Of a DNA stretch of 64,000 nt, positions 3,905 through 45,447 are shown one piece after another (the first letter of the stretch is position 1; every line of letters begins with the position of its first letter). Below the pieces are notes generated by a model. It worked only from the letters and a program-made list of their open reading frames with translations, was not told the DNA's origin and did not search any database. This DNA comes from Escherichia coli. Lineage in GTDB: Bacteria; Pseudomonadota; Gammaproteobacteria; Enterobacterales; Enterobacteriaceae. The position numbers and the translations under genes are program-made. Location of the stretch: the NCBI RefSeq assembly GCF_001677475.2, contig NZ_CP015229.1. The stretch is one strand, 5' to 3'.

Positions 3905-6900
3905 TCAGCTGATACTGATACCTGCTGTGGATTTCTTCATCACCACAACCAGCAGATCGCTGATACTGGTTGTTGGTGTCCAGTTATTCGCTCCTGATGA
4001 AGATACGGTGAATGTCAGTGTCAGCGCCCCCTGTCCGGCAGGCATATCTATAACTGAGGAAAATACGCCCTGAGCATCCGTCGTGGACTGATTAAAAATC
4101 TCCTGACCATTGCGGGTCACTCTTAACCGGCAGGTTGAATACCAGTATGACTGTTGGTTATTACTGTTGAAATTCTCATGCTTACCACCACGGAACAACA
4201 CTGGCGGTATCATGACCTGCCGGTCAAATTTCTGATCATCACTGATTCTTACCGTGATGGTGCCACTGGCATAACTGTTCGTGCGGGGGAAAGACTTGCT
4301 GACCGTTTTGACAATATCGCCTTCAATCTGGTTGGCTGACAGTTTCCCCTTAATCTGACAGTTCTCATTTATCGTGACGTTGTTGAGCGTCCCGGAGTTC
4401 GCATTCACGTTACCGCTGATATCGGCATTTTTAGCGGTCAGCTTTCCGTCCGGTGTCAGGGAAAATGCAGGAGGATTACCGCCGCTGGTAATGGTGGGAG
4501 CCGTCAGATATTTCAGGAACACTTCATTCATGAATATCTGATCACCCTGACCAACAAACATCGGTTTTGTGTTGCCATTTGCAGGATTAATCATCGCAAT
4601 CCTGTCTGCCGCCAGCAGCACCTGACTCTGCATGCCGTCGGGGGTGTTCTCAATACCGGCACCGATACCCGCAATATAAAGGCGACCATCCTGCATCTGC
4701 TGCAGTTTCACGGCCCACATACTGTTCAGGTTATTACTGGTGTCCGTCTGAACCTTTTGTATCTGCTGGATGGTGGCCTCCTGATCTCCCAGCTTCTGGT
4801 CCGTTGTCGTCATGATTTCACTGCTTTTTTGATCCACATACTGGCGAACCTGCGCTATCTGGCGTGCATTCTCCTCATTACTCTGACTGACCGTCTGCGT
4901 GAGTTCGCTGCTGACGTTATCCACTCTCTGGCTCACCTGTGATATACCCAGTGACAGCTCATCATTTTTTTTCGCAACCAGCTGCGTGAGGCTGTTTTCT
5001 GTCTCCCCGATTTTTTGGGTCACTTCAGCAATATCACTCTCTATCTGCTGATTGATCTCATCCTCCAGTTGCTCAACTTCACTGCGCAATGCCGAGGCAT
5101 TAATACGATCGTTCAGCTCCTGCCCCAGCAGGGTGCTGTTTATTTTCCCTTCAAAAAAATGGAGATATTTCTCAGCATCGTTACCCGGCTGGCCAACAGC
5201 CTCCACAAATGCCGATTTGCCGACGGTATTCACACTGCGAACGTAAAAATAATAATTATTGCCCGGCTCAATATCCGGTCCGGAGGCTATCCAGTACAGC
5301 GCCGTACCAAGATAGCGGGCTGTGGTTTCAACCTGCCTGATATCGATAATCCGCTTTTCCGATAACCAGAACTCAAACTGTACCGTCGGGTCATATACAG
5401 CCAGTTTCGGGACCGCCGTTATCTGAAAATACCCCGGTATCAGTTCAATAGTGACAGGCGCTACCGGTGCCGCAATCCGGAACGATACCGACGCCGGATC
5501 ACCCTGCTGCCCCCGGGCATTTACCGCCCGGACCGTCAGCATATAACGCCCCAGCGCCAGTTGTCTGAAGCGGTATGTGGTTTCCGTCGTCCGGGCTGTG
5601 CTGACCAGCCGCTCACTGCCGTCGTCCGCTGCCACGGTCAGGCGAAGCATGAAGCTCACGCCCTTCACCACCTTCGGCGTGTCCCAGCGGGCCAGTACCT
5701 GATACTCCCCGCTGTCTGCGGTGACTTCGGCGGTAAGGTGCTGCACCGCTGGCGGCGTGACACCATTCACCGTGCCGCTCTGGTCGCCGTCAAAGTGCGC
5801 CCCGTTATCCACGATGGCTTCTTTTTCCGGTACATGCTGCACGGCAGTGATGGCATACGTGCCGTCGTCGTTCTCACGGATACTCACGCAGCGGAACAGG
5901 CGCTGGCGCAGCGTCGGCAGCTTCAGCCCCCACACGCTGTATTCTGCAACGCCGTCAGGAACACGGCTCACTTTCACCTTCATGCCGTCGGTGACGGACT
6001 GAACCTCCACGCTGACCGGATTGCCATTTCCGTCAACCAGGCTTATCAGAGTGGTGCCGGAGGATGGCAGCGTGATTTCACGGTCGAGCGTCAGCGTCCG
6101 GGTCTGGCTGTTCACCGCCAGCACGCGACCACCGATGCTGATACCCGCATAGTCATCATCGCAGATTTCAATGATATCGCCCGGCACATGGCGAAGCCCT
6201 TCGGCACCCACGCTGAAGTCCACGGTCTGCGTTTCCAGCAGTTCCGTTTTAATCAGCCACAGCCCGGCGCGGTGCGCCTGCCCCCGGCTGGTACAGCCAA
6301 AGGCATCCATCTTCGTGACGTTACGACCGTAACGGGCAATGGCCTGCGTGTCCTCCACAAGCTCTGTTGCCGTCTCCCAGCCGTTGTCCGGGTCAATCCA
6401 GTTCACCTCAACGGCATTATGGCGGTCCTTCAGGGCGCTGAAGCTGTAGCGGAACGGCGCGCCGTCATCCGGCATCACCACATTACTGCGGTTATAGGTC
6501 CACACCTTATCCGACGGCCGGTCCTGCACGAACGTCAGCGTCTGCCCGTTCCATACCGGCATACAGCGCATCGCCGAGCAGAAATCACTGAGCACATCCC
6601 ACGCCTTACGCTGTGTTGTCAGGTAAGCATTACAGGTGATGCGCGGCTCCGTGCCGCCAAAGCCGTCCGGCACTGACTGGTCGCAGTACTGGCCGATGAC
6701 ATACAGCGCCCATTTATCCACATCCGCCGCACCAAGACGTTTCCCCATGCCGTAGCGCGGATGGGTCAGCATATCCCACAGACACCAGGCCATGTTGTTG
6801 CTGTATGCCGGTTTAAACGTTCCGTCCCAGATACTGCTGTATTGCCGCGTCTGCGGGTTATAGTTCGACGGCACCTGCAGAATGCGCCCGCGAAGATGAT

Positions 6901-15979: not shown

Positions 15980-17959
15980 TCAGGCCACCGACGAACGCAC
16001 CAGCCCGCGCCAGTCAAGTGGTGCCACACCGGCATCAATACGGATTTTTGTGGCGATACCGTCAGTGGTGAAACCTTCCTGCTGGTCAATGTAGGGGGTG
16101 TCCACACCATCGAGCCAGGCCACTTCAATGGTGTCGGTGCCCTGTGCCGCAGCCAGGTACCAGGTTTTCGGATCTGCCGCATCAAGACGCGCTTCCGCAA
16201 TTACTTCGGCAAAGTTCTGGATCGGGTTAATGACACCGGCGTTTGCATCCGCCCCTTTCACACTGGCCGATTTGATGGTCTGGTTCGCCACCGTCTCCAG
16301 TGACACCGGCACCAGCATAAAGGCCGGACGGATATTCAGGGCGCGATCGCCTTCTTTCTGCAGGCGCATCATCTGACGGGCCGCATCCAGCCCGGAAACG
16401 GAGATCCCGCCGGTGGCTATATTTTTGTGATCGGTATGGAACAGGGCCTTACCGTCTGACAGTTTCGGGTTATCCGTCAGCACCTTGTAAACCAGGTCAC
16501 CAATCGTTGCCTTCGCCGCACGCCCCATCTTCATCGGCACGTCCACCAGCATATTCAGATCATCATTGATAATGGCCTGGCGGGTGATGGAGAAAATCTC
16601 CCCGTAGGTGGCCAGAGCAATGGTCTCCTTGCGATCTGAGGTGGTGATGTATTTATACTCCGCCCCCTCACGAACCTGACGCAGAGAACCAAAACCGCCC
16701 ATCCCCACGCGATACGCTGTTTTGAAGTCTGACAGGCGTCCCTTACGGGTCCACTTCTGGAAGGTTTCTTCTGATTCCTCCCAGCCCTGGATCAGCCCCT
16801 TGTTCGACACATCCAGCAGAATATTGCCAAAATCAGAGGTGCTGTGCGTCAGCGCCAGCCCGACCATCTGCATGGGGTTATAACTGGCCACCCCAATACC
16901 ACGCTCGGTCAGTGACATGCGAGCCCATTCACGCAGGGTCATCCCGTTATAGACATTATCCTTCTCGACATTTTCATATCCGGCACGGGCCAGCATCGCC
17001 TGGCGGATCCCGTCTCCCACAAAATTGCCGTTTCCGGCATAAATATGGGCCGGTGTGTTTTTGTTGGTCGGCGAGGACTCCTTGCCCATTTCATTCAGAA
17101 GGCGCTCGCGGGCCATTTCCAGCGAACAGTCAGGATCGGCCACACACTGCGCCTGAAGCGCCTGATAGCGCCCGCCAAACATGGCAAACAGATCGTTAAT
17201 GCCTGACATGCGGGCTTTCTGCTCAGCCATAACGCGGGCGCGAATGGTCGCCTCATCAGACACTGCCGGTACCGGTGATGGTTCTGTTACCGCCGGTGCA
17301 GGGATTGTCACTGTGGTATCACGCGGGGCACTGTTGTGTGGCTGCGTGATCATATTTCGGATGGATTCCGGCATCTTTTTAAATTCCTCTGTACGTGTTG
17401 ACTGAATACATGCCATTGCCTTAACGGCTGGCGTCACCTGGTCAGCAAATCCGTGTGCCAGACACTCGGCACCGGACATCCAGGTCTCATCCGCCAGCAT
17501 GGCGGCAATTTCATCGGTAGTTTTTCCGGTTTTCTGCGCATATACCGGCACCATAACCGACTCAAGTTTGTCCAGACGTTCGGCATAAGTGCGCATTTTC
17601 TCCGCATCACCACCGCTGATCCCCCAGGGTTTATGGATCATCATGAAGGCATTTTCCGGCATAATGACCGTGTCACCGGCCATCGCAATCAGGGATGCCA
17701 TCGAGGCGGCAACGCCATCCACATACACGGTAATGGCCGCACCGTGATTTTTCAGGGCATTAAAAATGGCGATGCCTTCAAAGACATCGCCACCCGGTGA
17801 GTTGATGTGGAGATTAATGTGGGTGATATCACCCAGGGCATTCATATCGCTGACAAACTGCTTCGCGGTGACGCCCCAGAAACCAATCTCGTCATAAATA
17901 TAAATATCCGCCTCACCCTGACCCCCCGCCTGCATCCTGAACCAGGATTTATTCTTCAT
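15980..17959 (-). CDS. Prohead protease (ClpP/S49-like) fused to major capsid protein
   Basis: N-terminal protease core (INSPGGDVFEGIAIFNAL...VDGVAASMASLIAMAGD) and long C-terminal capsid-like region in one ORF; start MKNKSWF placed just after portal stop. Confidence 0.7.
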   Translation of the reverse strand: MKNKSWFRMQAGGQGEADIYIYDEIGFWGVTAKQFVSDMNALGDITHINLHINSPGGDVFEGIAIFNALKNHGAAITVYVDGVAASMASLIAMAGDTVIMPENAFMMIHKPWGISGGDAEKMRTYAERLDKLESVMVPVYAQKTGKTTDEIAAMLADETWMSGAECLAHGFADQVTPAVKAMACIQSTRTEEFKKMPESIRNMITQPHNSAPRDTTVTIPAPAVTEPSPVPAVSDEATIRARVMAEQKARMSGINDLFAMFGGRYQALQAQCVADPDCSLEMARERLLNEMGKESSPTNKNTPAHIYAGNGNFVGDGIRQAMLARAGYENVEKDNVYNGMTLREWARMSLTERGIGVASYNPMQMVGLALTHSTSDFGNILLDVSNKGLIQGWEESEETFQKWTRKGRLSDFKTAYRVGMGGFGSLRQVREGAEYKYITTSDRKETIALATYGEIFSITRQAIINDDLNMLVDVPMKMGRAAKATIGDLVYKVLTDNPKLSDGKALFHTDHKNIATGGISVSGLDAARQMMRLQKEGDRALNIRPAFMLVPVSLETVANQTIKSASVKGADANAGVINPIQNFAEVIAEARLDAADPKTWYLAAAQGTDTIEVAWLDGVDTPYIDQQEGFTTDGIATKIRIDAGVAPLDWRGLVRSSVA

Positions 17960-19451
17960 GCTGGCTGTCGGTGGCCTGCTGACGCTGTTGTTCAGTTCCG
18001 GCACTGTTGCCTCCTTTGTCGTTGGCGGGGTCAGTATCAAAGACCAGCCCCAGCCTGCGGTTTTCCTCAGTTTCCGCCTTACGGCGACGTTTGACCTCAT
18101 CCGGGTTGCGCCCGCCTGCGCGGATCCAGTCGGATTCCGTCGCGGCACCACCCCGGATCTGTATCCGCCAGGCTTCAGCCTCCTTAACCGGGTCAATCCA
18201 CGGCATCACCGGACCGGAATACGTCGCGTTATATAGCGTCTTCATCTCCACATCCGCCGGAATTTTCAGCAGACCTGCCGCAACCACCATATTCAGCCAT
18301 GTCCGGTACACCGGGCGGGTTACCGCACCAATAAAACAGTCCTGCAGGATCAGGTAACCATCCGTGGACTCGACCAGCTCCTGCCGCTGGGCGCTGTAGG
18401 TGCCGTTATAGTTACGCGCCGCACTGGAAAAGCTCAGACGACTGCCAGCTGCCACTGCACGCAACTGGCCGTTGCGGAAAGTTTCAAGGTTGGGATTGGG
18501 ACGATCGGATTTGACCATGCCGATATCCTCGCCCTTGCGCAAATCGTCATAAATAATTCCCGGGGTGATATGGACTTCCCGCTCGGTTTCTTTGCTCCCC
18601 GGATCTTCATAGTCCTGTCCGTCACCTTTACGGATATACAGTCCCAGCGCCGCAGCAATACGCGCCGCTGTCAGTTCCGCATCCTCATACTCCTTAAGGG
18701 CACTGATCCGCATCAGCACCCCCGATAACATGGATGAGCCTCGCGTCTGATGCAGACGACGAGTGAACTTCAGGTGGATCATTTTTCCGGCGGCGATTTC
18801 TTTCGTATCACTCTGCCGACCACTGACCGGATAATTTTTATAAACCAGATATTTTTTCGGTCTGCCCCACTCATCAAGAAAAACCCCCTGATTCAGCCCG
18901 GCGGATTCATCACTGCGCATGGGAACAAAATCCGGCTCCATCGCTTCAAGCCAGAATGGCACTCCCGCCGTCCGTTCCAGACCGTTTCCCGCACCACTGA
19001 CCATCTGCGCAAACACTTCACCATCCCGCAGCCAGGTCCGCAGCAGTAAACGCTCAAGCACGGGACGGGTATACTGCCCTGTCACATCCGGACTCACGGA
19101 CCATTCAGCCCACAACCGGCGGATATCCGCAGCCAGCTCTGCCGCCATTTCCCCGTTTTTTCGTAATGGCTGAGGCTCCACAGTAATTCCTCTGGCACCA
19201 ATCACCCGCTCTTCAAGCTTGTCAAACACACCAATCACCAGGTCATGATTGATATCCAGAAAACGGGCCTGCTCCCGCAGGGAAACCGCGCCATATTTAC
19301 TGAGTTGATCAGCAGATCGATTTTCACGCCGGGCTTTATGTGTCCGGGTCGGTTTCACCGCCTCATAGGCCATGATTAACGCCCTTGAACGCAGTCTGGC
19401 CGCTTTCCAGCCTGGAGAGAACACGCCTATCACATCATCAATAATTGCCAT
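17949..19451 (-). CDS. Portal protein (lambda B-like)
   Basis: 500-aa ORF between W-like gene and protease-capsid gene. Confidence 0.8.
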   Translation of the reverse strand: MAIIDDVIGVFSPGWKAARLRSRALIMAYEAVKPTRTHKARRENRSADQLSKYGAVSLREQARFLDINHDLVIGVFDKLEERVIGARGITVEPQPLRKNGEMAAELAADIRRLWAEWSVSPDVTGQYTRPVLERLLLRTWLRDGEVFAQMVSGAGNGLERTAGVPFWLEAMEPDFVPMRSDESAGLNQGVFLDEWGRPKKYLVYKNYPVSGRQSDTKEIAAGKMIHLKFTRRLHQTRGSSMLSGVLMRISALKEYEDAELTAARIAAALGLYIRKGDGQDYEDPGSKETEREVHITPGIIYDDLRKGEDIGMVKSDRPNPNLETFRNGQLRAVAAGSRLSFSSAARNYNGTYSAQRQELVESTDGYLILQDCFIGAVTRPVYRTWLNMVVAAGLLKIPADVEMKTLYNATYSGPVMPWIDPVKEAEAWRIQIRGGAATESDWIRAGGRNPDEVKRRRKAETEENRRLGLVFDTDPANDKGGNSAGTEQQRQQATDSQHEE

Positions 19452-22966: not shown

Positions 22967-23434
22967 CTAGTTAATACACTGAGTGCGGATATATTCCTGA
23001 AGCATTCTCAATGCTGCCTGGTCGCTGATGATTCCGTCTCTGATACCGAGAACGTTTCGTCCAGCAACCGGAGAGAGTTCGACGGCGGCATCATTGCCCA
23101 CGCCGGAGGTGCCGGTGGCTTCACGCACGGTACCGGGGCAGGTGGCGTTGATCCGCAGGCGCTTACGACCAGCGGCAACATCAGCACGCAGAGTTTCATT
23201 TTCAGCTCTCGCATCGGCTAATTCCCTCGAGTATTTTGCATCGAGCGCAGCAACATCGCGCTGGCGCACCTGCATATCAGTAATGGTTGCGTTTGCCAGC
23301 TCCAGCTCACTGGCTTTTTTATCGCGCTGCGCTTTGTAGGTGATGGCGTTATCGCGGTAATGATTCAGCCCCAGACTAAGCACACCACAGGCTACCAGCA
23401 GGACAATAATCACCACACACAGAACACGGTTCAT
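22967..23434 (-). CDS. Rz: i-spanin Rz
   Basis: Starts [18 protein letters not shown] (TM anchor) then ...[15 protein letters not shown]... lambda Rz-like. Confidence 0.9.
23008..23199 (-). CDS. Rz1: o-spanin Rz1 lipoprotein embedded in Rz (+1 frame)
   Basis: [15 protein letters not shown] lipobox, Pro-rich [15 protein letters not shown], fully inside Rz. Confidence 0.85.
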
Positions 23435-23435
23435 A

Positions 23436-23549
23436 TCACCACCAACGGATTGCCCAGACCAGAACAGCAATGGCTACAATACGAATGGCAAAAGCTGCCG
23501 CTCTTGTTAAATCCAGACTGGCTGGCGTCTCCACTTCAATGCCTTTCAT
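23436..23549 (-). CDS. Putative 37-aa single-TM micro-protein between endolysin and Rz
   Basis: ATG with GAGG upstream; [37 protein letters not shown]; stop TGA 1 nt before Rz ATG. Confidence 0.3.
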
Positions 23550-23767: not shown

Positions 23768-24301
23768 TTATCTGTCGATACCCCAGCACGCCAGCGCACT
23801 TTCCTGATCTCGCCGGGATACCTGACCGTAGCAATTATTTGAGCGGATACGGCAATCTCTGCCACCGTCCTTAATCCACCAGCGAATCGCTTCGCAGGCA
23901 CCTTTTCGATCACCTGCATTAATTCGTTTATAAAACGTCGACGGGAAACACTTACCGGGGCCAATGTTATACGGGCAGAATGACGCGATCCCCGCTTTCT
24001 GGGGTTCGGTCAGCGGCACTTTGATGTTTTTCTCCACCCATGCCAGCGCCTTGTCACGTTCGATGGCGTTAACCCGGTCGCATTTTTCCTTTGACAGCTT
24101 CATGCCAGGAATAACAGGCTTACCATCCACCAGAATGGCACCACGGCAGATGGTCCAGATCCCCGCACCATCACGGTATGCCGTGGTGTGGTTACCTTCC
24201 TTTTCATCCAGAAACTGGTCGAGGATTTCAGGCGCAGGCGCACCTGCGGCAATCAGCGCCAGAACGGCAGCCGACAGACCGTATTTGATTTTGGTGTTCA
24301 T
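23768..24301 (-). CDS. R: SAR-type endolysin (lysozyme R21-like)
   Basis: 177 aa; weakly hydrophobic Gly/Ala-rich N-terminal SAR segment (GLSAAVLALIAAGAPA) then lysozyme-like body. Confidence 0.8.
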   Translation of the reverse strand: MNTKIKYGLSAAVLALIAAGAPAPEILDQFLDEKEGNHTTAYRDGAGIWTICRGAILVDGKPVIPGMKLSKEKCDRVNAIERDKALAWVEKNIKVPLTEPQKAGIASFCPYNIGPGKCFPSTFYKRINAGDRKGACEAIRWWIKDGGRDCRIRSNNCYGQVSRRDQESALACWGIDR

Positions 24302-24429
24302 GGATATTTATCAGGATTTATCGGTTCCGAATCCCTGGATATGTTAATTCTTCAGCCCGCCAGTGGTGGGCACTGGTGTTTTACCTGATGGCTGAAATAT
24401 ATCTGACAATTCCCGTCGAGGATTTAGCA

Positions 24430-24744
24430 ATGTATAACGATGAACATAAATATACCGCCTGCATGCAGGCCATGAATGAACAATTTAAATCAGCATTCCT
24501 TAAACTCATTCAGCAAAACCACGAAGCAGTAAAATCCATTCAGGCTGAACCGTATGGACACCTCACACCACCAACTCTCGACATTATGTCCAGAATATTA
24601 ACACCAGCCATGCTTCTACGTCTGAAAGACAATATAAATGACTGGTTAAACGAAGAATTAAACTACCTTGAATGTGAGTGGGATCATCATTACGCCAAAT
24701 CACAAAAAGAACGCATCTTCCGTCGATTATCCGGCAACAGATAA
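24430..24744 (+). CDS. Hypothetical protein (alternative start 24376)
   Basis: 104-aa ORF MYNDEHKYTACMQAMNEQ... convergent with the gene below; no recognised motif. Confidence 0.4.
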   Translation: MYNDEHKYTACMQAMNEQFKSAFLKLIQQNHEAVKSIQAEPYGHLTPPTLDIMSRILTPAMLLRLKDNINDWLNEELNYLECEWDHHYAKSQKERIFRRLSGNR

Positions 24745-25398: not shown

Positions 25399-25614
25399 CT
25401 ACTCTCCCCGCGCCGCCTTACGCCGGTCTTCTTTAATTTTGAAATACAGGTTCGTCAGGTACGTCAGCAGACCAAACAGCAGACTCCCCAGCACGCCTAT
25501 TGCCACCCACTGGGACGGAGAGACTTTGTCCAGCAGCTGCAGTAACCAGTATCCCGTCCCCACCGCTGACGTGGTGTATGACACACCTGTTGTGATTTTT
25601 TCCATCTGGTACAT
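25399..25614 (-). CDS. S: Pinholin S (S21-like) with dual-start motif
   Basis: [71 protein letters not shown] resembles phage 21 S; two Met starts 3 codons apart. Confidence 0.85.
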
Positions 25615-25786
25615 ACCCCGTCTCCCGTTATCCGGAAGCTGACAACAATAAAAAAGCCACCCGTTAATTACTGATGGTCCTGATACCTCATACATCAGAA
25701 AAATAATTCTGCTCTATGGTTTACATTCAAAATTATCATTTATACTTTTCAGAACATCACCAGCAAGGCATAAATAAGGAAACTAA

Positions 25787-26122
25787 ATGAAGTGGATTGT
25801 GATTGACACAGTTATCCAGCCATCATGTGGAATATCTTTTTCAGCCATATGGAGTAAAATAAAATTAATAATCTGGTATCAATCGGATGTTTTCTTACCT
25901 CCTGAAAGTATATTTACGCTGACTCACACAGGTATCGTACTCAATAACAAAGTGCTACCTGTAACCATTTACAACGTTGTACCATTCAATAAAAGATTCT
26001 GGGATTTAATCAAAAACAGCCAAGAATGCCCTGCAAATTCAGATAACGTATTTAATGAATGCTTTAATAACCGTTGCATTCTGCAAATATGCCCCTACGG
26101 GCTAAAACGACACAGGCCATAA
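25787..26122 (+). CDS. Hypothetical Cys-rich protein in low-GC DNA
   Basis: 111-aa ORF with SD AAGGAAA, opposite strand to late operon, C-terminal [25 protein letters not shown]. Confidence 0.45.
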
Positions 26123-26383
26123 TAAGTTTACGCATGTCTGATAGAATCTGTAGAACCTGTTTATATAAAAAGCCCCTCAGGAGAGGGGCATGCTTGCATG
26201 GTGCCGGGTGCCTCCCGATGAATTCAGTATCAGTACCCGAATCAGCATAATAAAGGAGCAGAACAGAAACATACATCACTCATATGCCCACCACCCGGGG
26301 GGATCCACCATGCAAATTTTTTCTAACAAAAGCTCCGTCAACCAGCAATGCCCAATCAACTTAATTGTGATGGATTTAACATT

Positions 26384-26548
26384 TCACGTCTGTGTATTTT
26401 TTACACTCTTCAGCAAAGGCAACACCATTATCACCATCCCCGCCACCAGCACACCATCTGCCAGTACCGACATCAGCCGTCCGGTGAAATCCACTGCCAC
26501 TACCAGAAACAGCAGGATGGCAGCCAGCACAAGGCGCGCACTTTTCAC
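26384..26548 (-). CDS. Putative 54-aa two-TM membrane peptide, GTG start overlapping preceding stop
   Basis: VKSARLVLAAILLFLVVAVDFTGRLMSVLADGVLVAGMVIMVLPLLKSVKNTQT; GTGA overlap with upstream gene. Confidence 0.4.
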   Translation of the reverse strand: MKSARLVLAAILLFLVVAVDFTGRLMSVLADGVLVAGMVIMVLPLLKSVKNTQT

Positions 26549-26970
26549 AGGTACTGCTCCAGTGGTAGCTGCAGCGCCTGAGCAATTTTCTTGAGCTGTG
26601 CTTCTTCATCCGGACCAATACCATCCTGGTCAGCGATATCCAGACACAGGCACAGCACATTAACTGCGTCATCAGTACCTGCAATATCAGCCAGCTGGCG
26701 GAGGGCTTCGGCATTGGCAGAACGCGGCGATGCTTCATAACGGGCGCGGATATTTGCACTCATTTGTGCAATCTCACCCGAGAACGGCGCAAAGGCAGGA
26801 AGTGCTGCAATGGTTTTCTCCAGTACCGCGATTTCTTTCGCGTCACAGGTGCCGTCAGCATATGCAATGGAATACGCACCCCAGACGGTCGCCTCCACTG
26901 CATCGCGATTCTCCATCTTCTTCACTTCGGTAATGGCCTTGCGTGTTTTCTTTTTGAAAATACCAAACAT
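26545..26970 (-). CDS. TerB-like (tellurite-resistance TerB / DjlA N-domain-like) protein
   Basis: 141 aa, two helical half-repeats each with a DG...E...L signature (AYADGTCDAKEIAVLEK ; IADQDGIGPDEEAQLKKIAQALQL). Confidence 0.45.
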   Translation of the reverse strand: MFGIFKKKTRKAITEVKKMENRDAVEATVWGAYSIAYADGTCDAKEIAVLEKTIAALPAFAPFSGEIAQMSANIRARYEASPRSANAEALRQLADIAGTDDAVNVLCLCLDIADQDGIGPDEEAQLKKIAQALQLPLEQYL

Positions 26971-28067: not shown

Positions 28068-28142
<75 letters not shown>

Positions 28143-28145
28143 ATA

Positions 28146-28221
<76 letters not shown>

Positions 28222-28335: not shown

Positions 28336-28885
28336 TTAATTATCTGCCAACGTAACTATTTCACCCGCAGTATGCTCAAAACGTTCAGACTCAAGTTCAA
28401 CGCTTAACGCCATGCCCCCAAGTGCCAGCGCTGCTTTTATTATGGAGCCTGATCCCATGAAAAAGTCGGCAACCAAATCTCCCGGACGCAAACAGAATGC
28501 GCTCTGTTGCCGGGAAATACGCCCGCAGGCTTTCCTTGTTGCACCCGTTCCAGCGCCCGGACAGCTTCGCCCAGATAATGTGGTTCAGCACATTAAAGCG
28601 CTCACGCATCATGATTTCGATATCAGATGCCAGGCGATGACCACAGAACAGGTAAAGACTTCCGGCGGGTTTTAATACCCACCAGAACTGCGCCAGACAC
28701 TGATCCAGCCATTTCAGGTAATCATCGTCGCCCTTCCACTGGTTATCCCAGCCCTCGGGCTTCACTTTAAAGTATGGCGGGTCTGTGACTATCAGATCGA
28801 CAGAGTTTTCCGGTAAGGTCTGGATAAATTCCAGGAAATCAGCGTTGATTAACTCGCAGCTGGATATTTTTACAGTATTAGCCAT
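28336..28885 (-). pseudogene. DNA methyltransferase (DPPY, beta-class) interrupted by a 1-nt frameshift
   Basis: N-part has DLIVTDPPYF; SAM motif DFFMGSGS and C-terminus lie in another frame after a CCGGG run near 28480. Confidence 0.6.
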
Positions 28886-29521: not shown

Positions 29522-30340
29522 TCAATTATGTTTTAAGAATGGATAGGTAAAGAATAACAAGTGACACAGATTCAGACCAAAATGGAAAAGGGTTGCCACC
29601 CACAAGCGCCCACTCCACATCCATGACAATCCATACACAACACCAGATAACGTGGCAAATAATACAAGTAAAGCACCACCTGAATAGTGATAAAAACCAA
29701 ACAACAAAGACGCCACAATTAACGCAACCAATGGAGACGTCACTTCTGATAGCCGTGATTGAATATACCCTCTAAATAATGACTCCTCTGCCAGAGACAC
29801 AAAAAACAAATTAGCCAATATAAACTCTGGCAACCACTCTGGAAAATGAATCTCTGGCTTTAACCCACCAAAAAAAACAGCCAAAAACAGGATAAGAGGA
29901 ACAGAGAGCAACAGAGCCGCCCATTTCCACAAAGACACTTCTGATTTCACTTCTTTTTTAAAAAAAGAAGCTGTACACAGGACTAACAAAAATGGCACCA
30001 GCGCTTTATCAAAATTAAAATACATTGTATAGGGAGTGCTTTGAGGTCCGACAGTGACAGACTTTAGCACTACAGGATTGTGAAACCCTGGCCATAAATG
30101 AAAAGATAATGCTATGGCTGATAAAACTATGCCAGCTTCATATATGGATTTAGCCCAGGCGTTATATTTCCAGTTGAACTTCAAAATAATAAAAAAAACG
30201 ATTGTAGCAACAAAAAACAACACCGGCCAATCAATAATATCATTAAGCACAGCCAGGACAACAGACACCGTCAACAATGAAAAAGCCACTACCTTATGCC
30301 AACTGAGAGTTGACAGTGACAGTGCTAACACAATCCACAT
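29522..30340 (-). CDS. CPBP-family intramembrane metalloprotease (Abi/CAAX protease domain)
   Basis: Multi-TM protein with the family motifs EESLFRGY (EExxxR), FGFYH and HFGLN; encoded in AT-rich DNA. Confidence 0.7.
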   Translation of the reverse strand: MWIVLALSLSTLSWHKVVAFSLLTVSVVLAVLNDIIDWPVLFFVATIVFFIILKFNWKYNAWAKSIYEAGIVLSAIALSFHLWPGFHNPVVLKSVTVGPQSTPYTMYFNFDKALVPFLLVLCTASFFKKEVKSEVSLWKWAALLLSVPLILFLAVFFGGLKPEIHFPEWLPEFILANLFFVSLAEESLFRGYIQSRLSEVTSPLVALIVASLLFGFYHYSGGALLVLFATLSGVVYGLSWMWSGRLWVATLFHFGLNLCHLLFFTYPFLKHN

Positions 30341-30494: not shown

Positions 30495-30869
30495 CTACCG
30501 CATATCCATATCTAACCGGACATTCAGAGCCATAAGCATTCCTTCAATAATACCTTCAGCTTTATAAAGTCTTTTACCAATAAGCCCATCAGAACATCTA
30601 TGCTTACGTGCAAGAGCCATAAATGTCATTCCACCTACGTAATAATCGACCAACAAATCGTGCAAATACTGATTATTCTTGTTTAATCGTGCCATACAGC
30701 CACAAATTATCATGGCGTCATCATCAGAACACTGAGGACGTGATTTCACTTTAGTTGGGATTAATCCTTTAAAACCAGCAGCTATCGAGGACCATGTTAC
30801 ATCTTCATGATTATTTGCTGCCCATGCTCCCCACCGCTCCATAACCAGCTGAATATCACGCAACATCAT
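30495..30869 (-). CDS. Q: Late antiterminator Q (QuuD-like)
   Basis: 124 aa, [34 protein letters not shown]...[16 protein letters not shown] matches the small Q family. Confidence 0.85.
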
Positions 30870-33148: not shown

Positions 33149-33304
33149 TTACTCCTCAGATTCGTAAGCTGTGAAGACAGCGACCTCCGTCTGGCCGGTT
33201 CGGATTCGCACCTCGCAGAGGTCTTTCCTCGTTACCAGTGCCGTCACTATGACGGTTAAACAGATGACGATCAGGGCGATTAACATCGCCTTTTGCTGCT
33301 TCAT
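33149..33304 (-). CDS. hokD: Hok/Gef-family membrane toxin (HokD/RelF-like)
   Basis: MKQQKAMLIALIVICLTVIVTALVTRKDLCEVRIRTGQTEVAVFTAYESEE, near-identical to E. coli HokD; longer overlapping in-frame ORF is mok-like. Confidence 0.9.
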   Translation of the reverse strand: MKQQKAMLIALIVICLTVIVTALVTRKDLCEVRIRTGQTEVAVFTAYESEE

Positions 33305-33594
33305 AGCCTGCTTCTCCTTGCCTTTCGGCACGTAAGAGGCTAACCTACATGTGCAAAGCATGAAATTGGCCTCAGATTAATGTTAAGCGTCTTGCCGGAC
33401 GCGTAATGTTAACTGGGGCTTTTCTCTATCTGCCGTTGGTGTTCATGCCCGAGGCAGATAGCCTCAAGCACCCGCTGCAATTCTACTTAACTCTCCTTTT
33501 CCCGCAAACCGTTTTTATCCCCAGCGGCAAATCGAATACACCACCAGCGCCACCGCAAGTGCAATTCCTACCGTTGTGAATGCTTCAGGCCAGG

Positions 33595-40746: not shown

Positions 40747-40799
40747 ATTCTGGTGACATTTGGCGGTATCAGTTTTACTCCGTGACTGCTCTGCCGCCC
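40747..40799 (+). ncRNA. dicF: DicF small RNA
   Basis: TTCTGGTGACATTTGGCGGTATCAGTTTTACTCCGTGACTGCTCTGCCGCCC followed by TTTTT, matches DicF sRNA upstream of dicB. Confidence 0.8.
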
Positions 40800-43977: not shown

Positions 43978-44187
43978 ATGGCTATGAGCAGCTTATTTTT
44001 AACCGAAGATGAATTGCTAATATTAACGGGCTGCAAATATGCAAGCCACCAGCGAAAATGGTTAATGGAAAACGGGCTTCCGTTCTATACCAATCGTAGT
44101 GGCAAACCGATTGTCAGCCGGGATCTATTTACCTGCAATAAAACTTTACCACCACGCGAGGTAGAGCCGAATTTTGGTGCAATCTGA
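43978..44187 (+). CDS. xis: Excisionase-like protein
   Basis: 69-aa ORF immediately upstream of and overlapping integrase start. Confidence 0.6.
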   Translation: MAMSSLFLTEDELLILTGCKYASHQRKWLMENGLPFYTNRSGKPIVSRDLFTCNKTLPPREVEPNFGAI

Positions 44188-45212
44188 TGGGAAGACGAAG
44201 GAAAAATCCTGAACACGAAAAATTACCTCCAAATGTATACCCAAATAAATATAGTTATGTATGGAAACCAACATCCAGAGAATCTGTCACACTAACCGCC
44301 ATCAAGGATGGTTTAGCTGCTTTATGGAAAAAGTATGAGGAAACTGTAAATAATCGCGATCGCGCAATGACATTCGGTCGCTTGTGGGAAAAATTCCTCG
44401 CCAGCGCCTATTACAGTGACCTCAGTCCAAGAACACAAAAAGATTATCTGCAACATCAAAAAAAGTTGCTTGCCGTATTCGGTAAGGTGCCGGCAGATTC
44501 CATAAAACCAGAACACATCCGTCGATACATGGACAAGAGAGGGGAACAGAGTAAAACGCAAGCCAACCATGAAAAAAGCAGTATGTCCCGCGTTTACAAT
44601 TGGGGGTATGAGCGAGGGTACGTGAAGGGTAACCCATGTGCAGGTGTAAGTAAATTCAAGGCCAAAAACCGCGAACGATATGTAACCGACAAAGAATACC
44701 AGGCAGTATTAAGTGTTGCACCTCTTCCTGTTTTTATCGCAATGGAAATTGCCTATCTGTGTGCAGCGAGGGTTTCCGATGTGTTATCACTGAAATGGGA
44801 GCAGATTGGAAACGACGGGATCTTTATCCAGCAAGGGAAAACAGGGAAAAAACAGATAAAAGCATGGAGTCCACGATTACAGGCGGCGATCGAAAAAGCA
44901 AAACAGTTACCAACATCTGCCTATGTAATCAGCAATCAATATGGCAACCGATATATGTACAAAGGTTTTAACGAAATGTGGGTAGAAGCAAGAAATCACG
45001 CAGGCAAAATTTCAGGTATTTTAACCGACTTCACCTTTCATGATCTGAAGGCGAAAGGAATTTCAGACTATGAAGGAAGCAGCCGGGATAAGCAACTTTT
45101 CTCTGGTCACAAAACCGAAGGGCAAGTGCTAATCTATGACAGAAAGGTTAAAGTTTCACCAACACTTGATGTCCCGTTACCTGATAATATTCCAAGAAAA
45201 TATTCCAAGTAA
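44187..45212 (+). CDS. int: Tyrosine integrase
   Basis: 341 aa; C-terminal catalytic region with R...HDLKAKG...GHKTEGQVLIY; 3' end 43 nt from serU. Confidence 0.9.
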   Translation: MGRRRKNPEHEKLPPNVYPNKYSYVWKPTSRESVTLTAIKDGLAALWKKYEETVNNRDRAMTFGRLWEKFLASAYYSDLSPRTQKDYLQHQKKLLAVFGKVPADSIKPEHIRRYMDKRGEQSKTQANHEKSSMSRVYNWGYERGYVKGNPCAGVSKFKAKNRERYVTDKEYQAVLSVAPLPVFIAMEIAYLCAARVSDVLSLKWEQIGNDGIFIQQGKTGKKQIKAWSPRLQAAIEKAKQLPTSAYVISNQYGNRYMYKGFNEMWVEARNHAGKISGILTDFTFHDLKAKGISDYEGSSRDKQLFSGHKTEGQVLIYDRKVKVSPTLDVPLPDNIPRKYSK

Positions 45213-45254: not shown

Positions 45255-45344
45255 GATTGAATTTTGGCGGAGAGAGGGGGATTTGAACCCCCGGTGGAGT
45301 TGCCCCCACTCCGGTTTTCGAGACCGGTCCGTTCAGCCGCTCCG
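45255..45344 (-). tRNA. serU: tRNA-Ser (anticodon CGA), serU; prophage attachment site
   Basis: 90-nt tRNA with long variable arm, anticodon loop CUCGAAA, GGTTCAAATCC T-arm, CCA end. Confidence 0.9.
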
Positions 45345-45447
45345 GCATCTCTCCGTTCAGATGGTTGCCATGATGCCAGGAAATTTGGCATTTTAACAGT
45401 CCCTGTCCGTGCAATTTTGTTCAAGTGACGAGTTTGCGAGCAAAACG

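Follow-up and report, generated by a model that had tools for sequence, protein, structure and literature searches.

The anti-adaptor IraL (formerly ycgW) was characterized in uropathogenic Escherichia coli CFT073 (Hryckowian et al. 2014, PMC4045071). [quoted passage not shown] Upon deletion of iraL in CFT073, the half-life of RpoS in log phase fell by half, from about 5 min to about 2.5 min. In growing cells that are not induced, the CFT073 gene is expressed from a start mapped by 5′RACE, and the mRNA 5′-end derived in this way is ACATCACCAGCAAGGCATAAACAAGGAAACCA (PMC4045071). A fragment of CFT073 covering −100 to +33, together with iraL, led to higher RpoS in log-phase K-12 cells, and the upstream region was found to be at least 96% identical among the iraL strains (PMC4045071).

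For IraM of E. coli K-12 (b1160), a crystal structure with RssB is available (PDB 8TWD). The barrel of IraM docks on the α4-β5-α5 face of the RssB receiver domain and also on the linker and the C-terminal domain, whereby RpoS is excluded (PMC10844676). IraM thus binds both RssB domains, in contrast to the single domain reported for IraL. In fold, IraM is related to PmrD, and both act on receiver domains (PMC10844676). The C-terminal tail of IraM was removed in the structural study and was called flexible and less conserved (PMC10844676).

Small RNAs of the STnc100 family have been described for Stx2 phages, in which the counterpart is the Hfq-binding EcOnc27, encoded downstream of stx2B (PMC12711010). 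This sRNA is also related to PasD (bioRxiv 10.64898/2026.05.13.724894). The neighboring anti-adaptor gene is mentioned in neither of these two studies, and a literature search for iraM or iraL genes of prophages and Stx phages found no paper beyond the IraL study (PMC4045071).

Location and conservation of the open reading frame

The window analyzed here, a stretch of 64,000 nucleotides of E. coli DNA, holds a lambdoid prophage. The integrase gene (44187..45212) adjoins a tRNA-Ser gene (45265..45354), which we take to be serU. An ORF with an ATG start and 111 codons plus stop was located at 25787..26122 on the + strand, between a holin gene and a DUF3927/TerB gene pair. The left neighbor encodes a class II (P21-type) holin (25399..25614, −; PF04971, E 2e-32; also annotated by RefSeq in a 99.9%-identical locus), the first of the lysis genes in the late operon; further on lie genes for a lysozyme (23768..24301, −) and Rz (22967..23470, −). 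The right neighbors encode a DUF3927 (TciB-like) protein (26384..26548, −; PF13064, E 3e-16; phrog_1470) and a TerB-domain, tellurite-resistance-like protein (26545..26970, −; PF05099, E 2e-7; phrog_632). In PHROGs, phrog_1470 is described as ‘TciB-like inhibition of cell division or resistance to colicin’ and phrog_632 as ‘tellurite resistance’, and both are placed in the moron category. Late transcription runs in the direction set by the antiterminator Q (30495..30863, −; PF06530, E 7e-52). Since all neighbors are encoded on the − strand, the ORF is antisense inside the Q-dependent late transcription unit.

At 36.3%, the GC content of the ORF is below the 51.3% of the prophage DNA in the window. 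A Shine-Dalgarno sequence (AAGGA) was found at 25777-25781, 5 nucleotides 5′ of the ATG. The description in the first-pass annotation of an AT-rich 111-aa frame with a strong Shine-Dalgarno sequence, running against the late operon, was therefore confirmed. A second copy of the gene was not found in the window by tblastn.

The ratio dN/dS was 0.19 against K-12 iraM, 0.14 against the copy of a Stx2c phage and 0.21 against the copy of phage vB_EcoS-640R1. Full-length relatives were found down to 21% identity. Judged from these ratios and relatives, the reading frame is conserved under purifying selection and is no chance ORF.

In a megablast search of positions 25600-26400 against complete E. 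coli genomes, 99.9%-identical loci were found, in which RefSeq names the product ‘anti-adapter protein IraM’ (WP_038813346.1). The exact protein is present on 724 public contigs, where it is named IraM as well. Of 5,426 complete E. coli genomes, 4,757 contain DNA of the iraM family, and a single genome can have as many as four copies. The 111-aa iraL type, at a nucleotide identity of at least 90%, was present in about 1,440 complete-genome records. A homologue was also found in 46 records of the phage collection, mostly Stx2c or Stx2a phages. The gene is of an already characterized kind, which public databases name an anti-adaptor.

Assignment to the IraM family and the IraL subtype

The protein matched the NCBIfam profile NF007393 (‘anti-adapter protein IraM’) with 163.9 bits at a cut-off of 121, whereby residues 1-110 were aligned to positions 1-113 of the 114 profile positions. 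Using phmmer, it also matched the IraM core in the PDB (8TWD_A, residues 1-78) with an E-value of 6e-33. A Pfam hmmscan gave no match, even at E 10, for this protein, CFT073 IraL or K-12 IraM. As known IraL and IraM are not found either, Pfam is uninformative for this family. Precomputed tables list PF11183 (PmrD) for homologues despite this null result.

The mean pLDDT of the AlphaFold model was 67.6 with an alignment of 19 sequences and 85.6 with an alignment of 33 sequences; in the latter model it ranges between 87 and 96 across residues 1-80. Residues 1-78 form a predicted PmrD-like antiparallel barrel with hairpin and helix as in 8TWD, followed by a tail (residues 79-111). In a Foldseek search with the earlier model, 8twd_A was the top match (TM 0.88, rmsd 1.4 Å), followed by the PmrD structures 4hn7 (TM 0.73), 2jso and 2rqx with an identity of 14-18%. 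Membership in the PmrD family itself was rejected, since PF11183 was not matched at E 10 and the identity to the PmrD structures is this low. PmrD, the polymyxin-resistance connector (4HN7), has the barrel-plus-helix fold in common with the protein and likewise binds a response-regulator receiver domain, but its identity is about 15% and its target is PmrA, not RssB. The first-pass annotation had classified the product as being of unknown function. This did not hold: the profile match, the similarity to 8TWD and an identity of 99 of 111 residues to IraL identify an RssB anti-adaptor of the IraM/IraL family.

For the comparison of the binding surface, 15 RssB-contact positions (clusters I-III and Pro66) were taken from the IraM-RssB crystal structure (PMC10844676). 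Eleven of the 15 are identical to K-12 IraM, including all five positions of cluster I, and the only differences are T13S, L75I, H63N and I64V in clusters II and III. Asn63 is the family norm, to which His63 of K-12 is the exception. All 15 positions are identical to CFT073 IraL; the contact map comes from IraM, which bridges both RssB domains, and its transfer to a protein of the IraL type is an approximation.

Compared to K-12 IraM, the protein belongs to the same family and has the same fold, contact cluster I and four-cysteine tail. The two are 64% identical across 107 collinear residues, and K-12 IraM lacks the last four residues. The K-12 gene adjoins the e14/icd junction instead of lying in an intact interval between Q and holin, and its flanks have no homology to those of the window outside the coding region. 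The similarity to CFT073 IraL (C_RS06710, WP_000871291.1) is considerably higher, with 99 of 111 identical residues and 313 of 336 identical nucleotides in the coding DNA. The 12 substitutions, given with the residue of the window protein first, are A20V, V35A, V51M, R70T, D73N, A83T, S85T, F89L, I98T, R108Q, H109Q and R110S. None of them affects a contact position, and five are assigned to the uncharacterized tail. The moderate identity to K-12 IraM, the unalignable K-12 flanks and the close match to CFT073 IraL place the protein in the IraL subtype. On these comparisons, the prophage carries in this ORF an allele of iraL, the iraM paralogue characterized in CFT073.

In CFT073, the printed 5′RACE start lies in the potB prophage, 33 nt 5′ of the ATG of C_RS06710, which is annotated as a 111-aa ‘IraM’ gene. 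A 108-aa homologue (P0018) had been considered as IraL and was rejected, since its loci represent a different subtype adjoining LpxR; the CFT073 sequence settled the identity.

The ORF encodes five cysteines (positions 14, 81, 92, 97 and 102), the last four of which form a C-terminal cluster. This cluster had been pointed out in the first-pass annotation and is real. C81, C92, C97 and C102 (codons 81-102, 26027..26092) fit the motif C-P-x9-10-C-x4-5-C-x4-C-P. For the analysis of its conservation, 33 full-length relatives with identities down to 21% were aligned, originating from Escherichia, Citrobacter, Salmonella salamae, Enterobacter and Intestinirhabdus. Only Met1, Trp72, Cys81, Cys97 and Cys102 are invariant, while Cys92 is present in 32 of the 33 sequences (97%) and Pro103 likewise in 97%. 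By this alignment, no other part of the family proteins is as well conserved as the cysteine cluster. The pLDDT of the tail increased from below 50 with the 19-sequence alignment to about 70 with the 33-sequence alignment. A small metal-binding knuckle would be a reasonable guess for this tail; no paper on metal binding by the IraM or IraL tail was found.

Promoter region, convergent small RNA gene and prophage context

The transcription start was placed at 25754 by homology to the 5′RACE start of CFT073, which would result in a 5′-UTR of 33 nt (25754..25786, +). This putative leader is identical to that of CFT073 in 31 of 33 positions, and the printed CFT073 5′-end differs from the window by two mismatches in 32 nt. 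The core promoter block (25692..25753, +) is identical to positions −62 to −1 of CFT073 in 60 of 62 nucleotides. The region from −62 to +33 thus matches in 91 of 95 positions (96%), including the mapped start. The putative −10 hexamer is TATACT (25741-25746), which is retained in the form TATAAT by the Stx2c-phage copies. TTTACA at 25720-25725 is a candidate −35 hexamer with a spacer length of 15 nt. A scan for consensus promoters was uninformative, as sites were no more numerous than in shuffled sequence, and the promoter call therefore rests on the homology to the mapped CFT073 start.

Upstream of the core promoter, the junction DNA that separates the iraL module from the start of the holin gene (25615..25691) has no homology to positions −100 to −63 of CFT073. 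With 5 of 38 identical positions, the two segments are unrelated, and over the entire range from −100 to +33 the identity is 96 of 133. The alignments break at about 25692. Since the segment from −100 to −63 of the complementing CFT073 fragment is replaced in the window, the promoter strength or regulation could differ.

The regulation of iraM in K-12 is linked to Mg2+ and PhoP. As the K-12 flanks cannot be aligned, this regulation is not transferable to the gene in the window. In the 200 nt upstream of this gene, the best match to a PhoP box reached only 8 of 12 positions. The copies of phage vB_EcoS-640R1, O55:H7 and phage 2851 have a PhoP-box-like match of 11/12 in reverse orientation between −112 and −96 from the ATG. 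The segment carrying these matches is missing from the window, and such T/A-rich matches are weak evidence.

Downstream of the gene, a gene for an sRNA of the STnc100 family, with EcOnc27 and PasD as relatives, was identified at 26167..26342 on the − strand (Rfam RF02076, 93.7 bits compared to a gathering score of 47). It is convergent to iraL and lies 45 nt beyond the iraL stop codon. The sRNA ends in an intrinsic terminator hairpin (26172-26189) with a T run. On the + strand the hairpin has no T run behind it, and it therefore acts as a terminator for the − strand alone. The minimum free energy fold of the sRNA region was not significantly more stable than that of shuffled sequences (z = −1.77), so the sRNA was called on the strength of the Rfam covariance model.

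The tail-to-tail arrangement of an iraM-family gene and STnc100 was present in seven of seven prophage loci examined, comprising three protein subtypes. These loci are the window, CFT073, phage vB_EcoS-640R1, O55:H7 DEC5B, phage 2851, O157:H7 SS17 and the 108-aa subtype adjoining LpxR. In the numbering of the other loci, the sRNA gene is located at 5335..5546 (L003, phage 2851), 5362..5550 (L004), 4362..4551 (L006), 4335..4546 (L007), 23251..23440 (L011) and 4374..4583 (L008). Beside K-12 iraM, STnc100 is absent. An alignment of five loci delimits a shared AT-rich module of roughly 680 bp (about 25692..26375), and iraL and the sRNA travel as one cassette in a cargo hot-spot between Q and holin.

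The same genomic slot and orientation were found in CFT073, phage vB_EcoS-640R1, O55:H7 and Stx2c prophages. The CFT073 locus resembles the window in the 111-aa length, core promoter, 33-nt leader and Shine-Dalgarno sequence. It is also a lambdoid prophage with Q, tRNAs, DUF3927, an opposite-strand iraL antisense to the late operon, and holin, and has the convergent STnc100 sRNA just 3′ of the iraL stop. In CFT073, DUF1737 and a small ORF precede the holin, whereas the holin adjoins directly in the window. The two prophages differ in their location, which is potB in CFT073 and next to tRNA-Ser here, and the STnc100 copy of the window is more diverged (93.7 bits compared to 132.4 bits in CFT073).

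The iraM-like ORF of Stx2c and some Stx2a phages (phage 2851; O157:H7 SS17, WP_001303568.1) has the same orientation, interval and STnc100/EcOnc27 partner, and the −10 and Shine-Dalgarno sequences are kept. It differs in its length of 107 aa, in a protein identity of 76% to the window protein, in extra cysteines at positions 23 and 41 and in its location directly after the toxin genes. In phage 2851 (FM180578), this 107-aa ORF lies immediately after stx2B on the opposite strand (L003 5001..5321). Most of the listed phage GenBank records have no annotation for the ORF after stx2B; RefSeq annotates the copy of O157:H7 SS17. In PHROGs, the family (phrog_4407) is described as ‘unknown function’.

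Strain GB089 is collinear with the window around iraL, with 99.9% identity over 25600-26400 and agreement of the checked ORFs from Rz (22967) to Q (30863). The head genes (15980..19451, −), which comprise a lambda-family portal gene and a 738-aa ClpP-protease/capsid fusion ORF, differ from those of GB089. The prophage is therefore a mosaic, and the cassette is common to different phage backbones.

Several other features were observed in the prophage. A further opposite-strand ORF (24388..24744, +; 118 aa according to the GB089 annotation; roughly 40% GC) has a 213-aa ORF of the late strand on one side and the lysozyme gene on the other. It matches phrog_1853 (unknown function), had no Pfam or NCBIfam match and may be another cargo gene. 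Downstream of Q, prophage-borne tRNA-Gly(UCC) and tRNA-Thr(UGU) genes were found at 28068..28221 (−). The ORF beside them (28397..28885, −) corresponds, in the near-identical locus of GB089, to what RefSeq annotates as a truncated DNA methyltransferase pseudogene. A gene for a CPBP/Rce1-like intramembrane protease (29522..30340, −) lies directly downstream of Q, which is unusual cargo for the head of a late operon. Furthermore, sok antisense RNA (33299..33473, −; hokD in the matching GB089 annotation) and DicF sRNA (40748..40799, +; dicB nearby in GB089) were identified, both of which are typical of Qin/Rac-like lambdoid prophages.

Proposed function and alternative explanations

With high probability, the ORF is a working iraL allele whose product stabilizes RpoS by sequestering RssB, by analogy with CFT073 IraL and K-12 IraM. 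The lysogen would transcribe iraL from its own sigma-70-type promoter, with a predicted start at 25754 and a 33-nt leader that includes a good Shine-Dalgarno sequence. The cytoplasmic product of roughly 12.8 kDa would bind the response-regulator adaptor RssB via the N-terminal PmrD-like barrel, and RssB would thereby be unable to deliver RpoS (sigma-S) to ClpXP. RpoS would be stabilized and the general stress response raised during growth. Family membership, fold, contact residues, core promoter and purifying selection were established from the sequence, and expression, RssB binding and RpoS stabilization are extrapolated to this strain from CFT073 IraL and K-12 IraM. Points against this reading are the 12 substitutions relative to IraL, the replaced segment from −100 to −63, possible silencing of the AT-rich DNA by H-NS and the use of contact positions taken from IraM.

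A different expectation follows if the gene is an intact but silent passenger, with an IraL-like protein that is not made, or is made at too low a level to act on RssB. Possible causes are the loss of the upstream region, silencing by H-NS, or collision with the convergent sRNA and the late operon. AT-rich DNA of foreign origin is a frequent target of H-NS silencing, and the ORF with 36% GC lies within a prophage of 51% GC. The lack of homology to CFT073 between −100 and −63 and the convergent STnc100 gene 45 nt past the stop, with no T-run terminator on the + strand, also fit a silent gene. The core promoter and the 5′-UTR, however, are identical to the active CFT073 promoter in 91 of 95 positions, the dN/dS of 0.14-0.21 indicates a protein under selection across lineages, and the 111-aa type at a nucleotide identity of at least 90% occurs in about 1,440 complete-genome records. 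A silent passenger is accordingly considered unlikely. The suggestion in the first-pass annotation of a lysogen-expressed cargo gene stands as far as the self-contained AT-rich insert and its own promoter (60/62 identical to CFT073) are concerned, and by analogy to CFT073 expression in the lysogen is probable.

The two remaining explanations concern the nature of the protein. Its PmrD-like fold (4hn7, TM 0.73; 2jso; 2rqx), together with the action of both IraM and PmrD on receiver domains (PMC10844676), would also fit a PmrD-like connector for another response regulator, for example PmrA or a phage-relevant one. The identity to PmrD is 14-18%, compared to 89% to IraL and 64% to IraM, and all RssB-contact positions match IraL, an experimental RssB binder, which makes another target very improbable. 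Even less credence is given to an exported or membrane-anchored Cys-rich protein, such as a secreted toxin, a bacteriocin-like peptide or a lipoprotein. This idea goes back only to the first-pass annotation, in which the N-terminus had been perceived as hydrophobic and the C-terminus as rich in cysteine. The N-terminus is indeed mildly hydrophobic, but the maximum 19-residue Kyte-Doolittle mean is 1.32 and the segment is interrupted by Asp7. A positively charged n-region with an h-region behind it is lacking, as is a lipobox. The longest uncharged run comprises 11 residues and lies inside the barrel. Residues 2-11 correspond to strand 1 of the barrel, with the RssB-contact residues I4 and I6, and the homologues are cytoplasmic anti-adaptors. 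A signal peptide or transmembrane helix was therefore rejected on the basis of hydropathy and the placement in a barrel strand.

With the assignment as a prophage-borne iraL allele, some small testable leads arise, namely the four-cysteine tail and the Hfq-binding sRNA with which the gene is constantly paired, neither of which represents a new kind of system. It is possible, but rather doubtful, that the tail is a small zinc- or redox-sensing knuckle tuning how stable or active IraL/IraM is and that iraL and the STnc100 sRNA form a co-regulated unit shut off by Q-dependent late transcription at induction. If true, the anti-adaptor would, through the Cys4 knuckle, act as a sensor in its own right. 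A further residual lead is the upstream segment replaced in the window, as this might alter regulation.

For annotation, the proteins named ‘IraM’ by RefSeq at this locus correspond to an iraL allele, and phrog_4407 as well as the ORFs behind stx2B gain an identity. For the biology of E. coli, prophage-borne anti-adaptors reset the amount of RpoS held by the growing lysogen and, with it, the tolerance to acid, oxidative stress and starvation in food-borne and uropathogenic strains.
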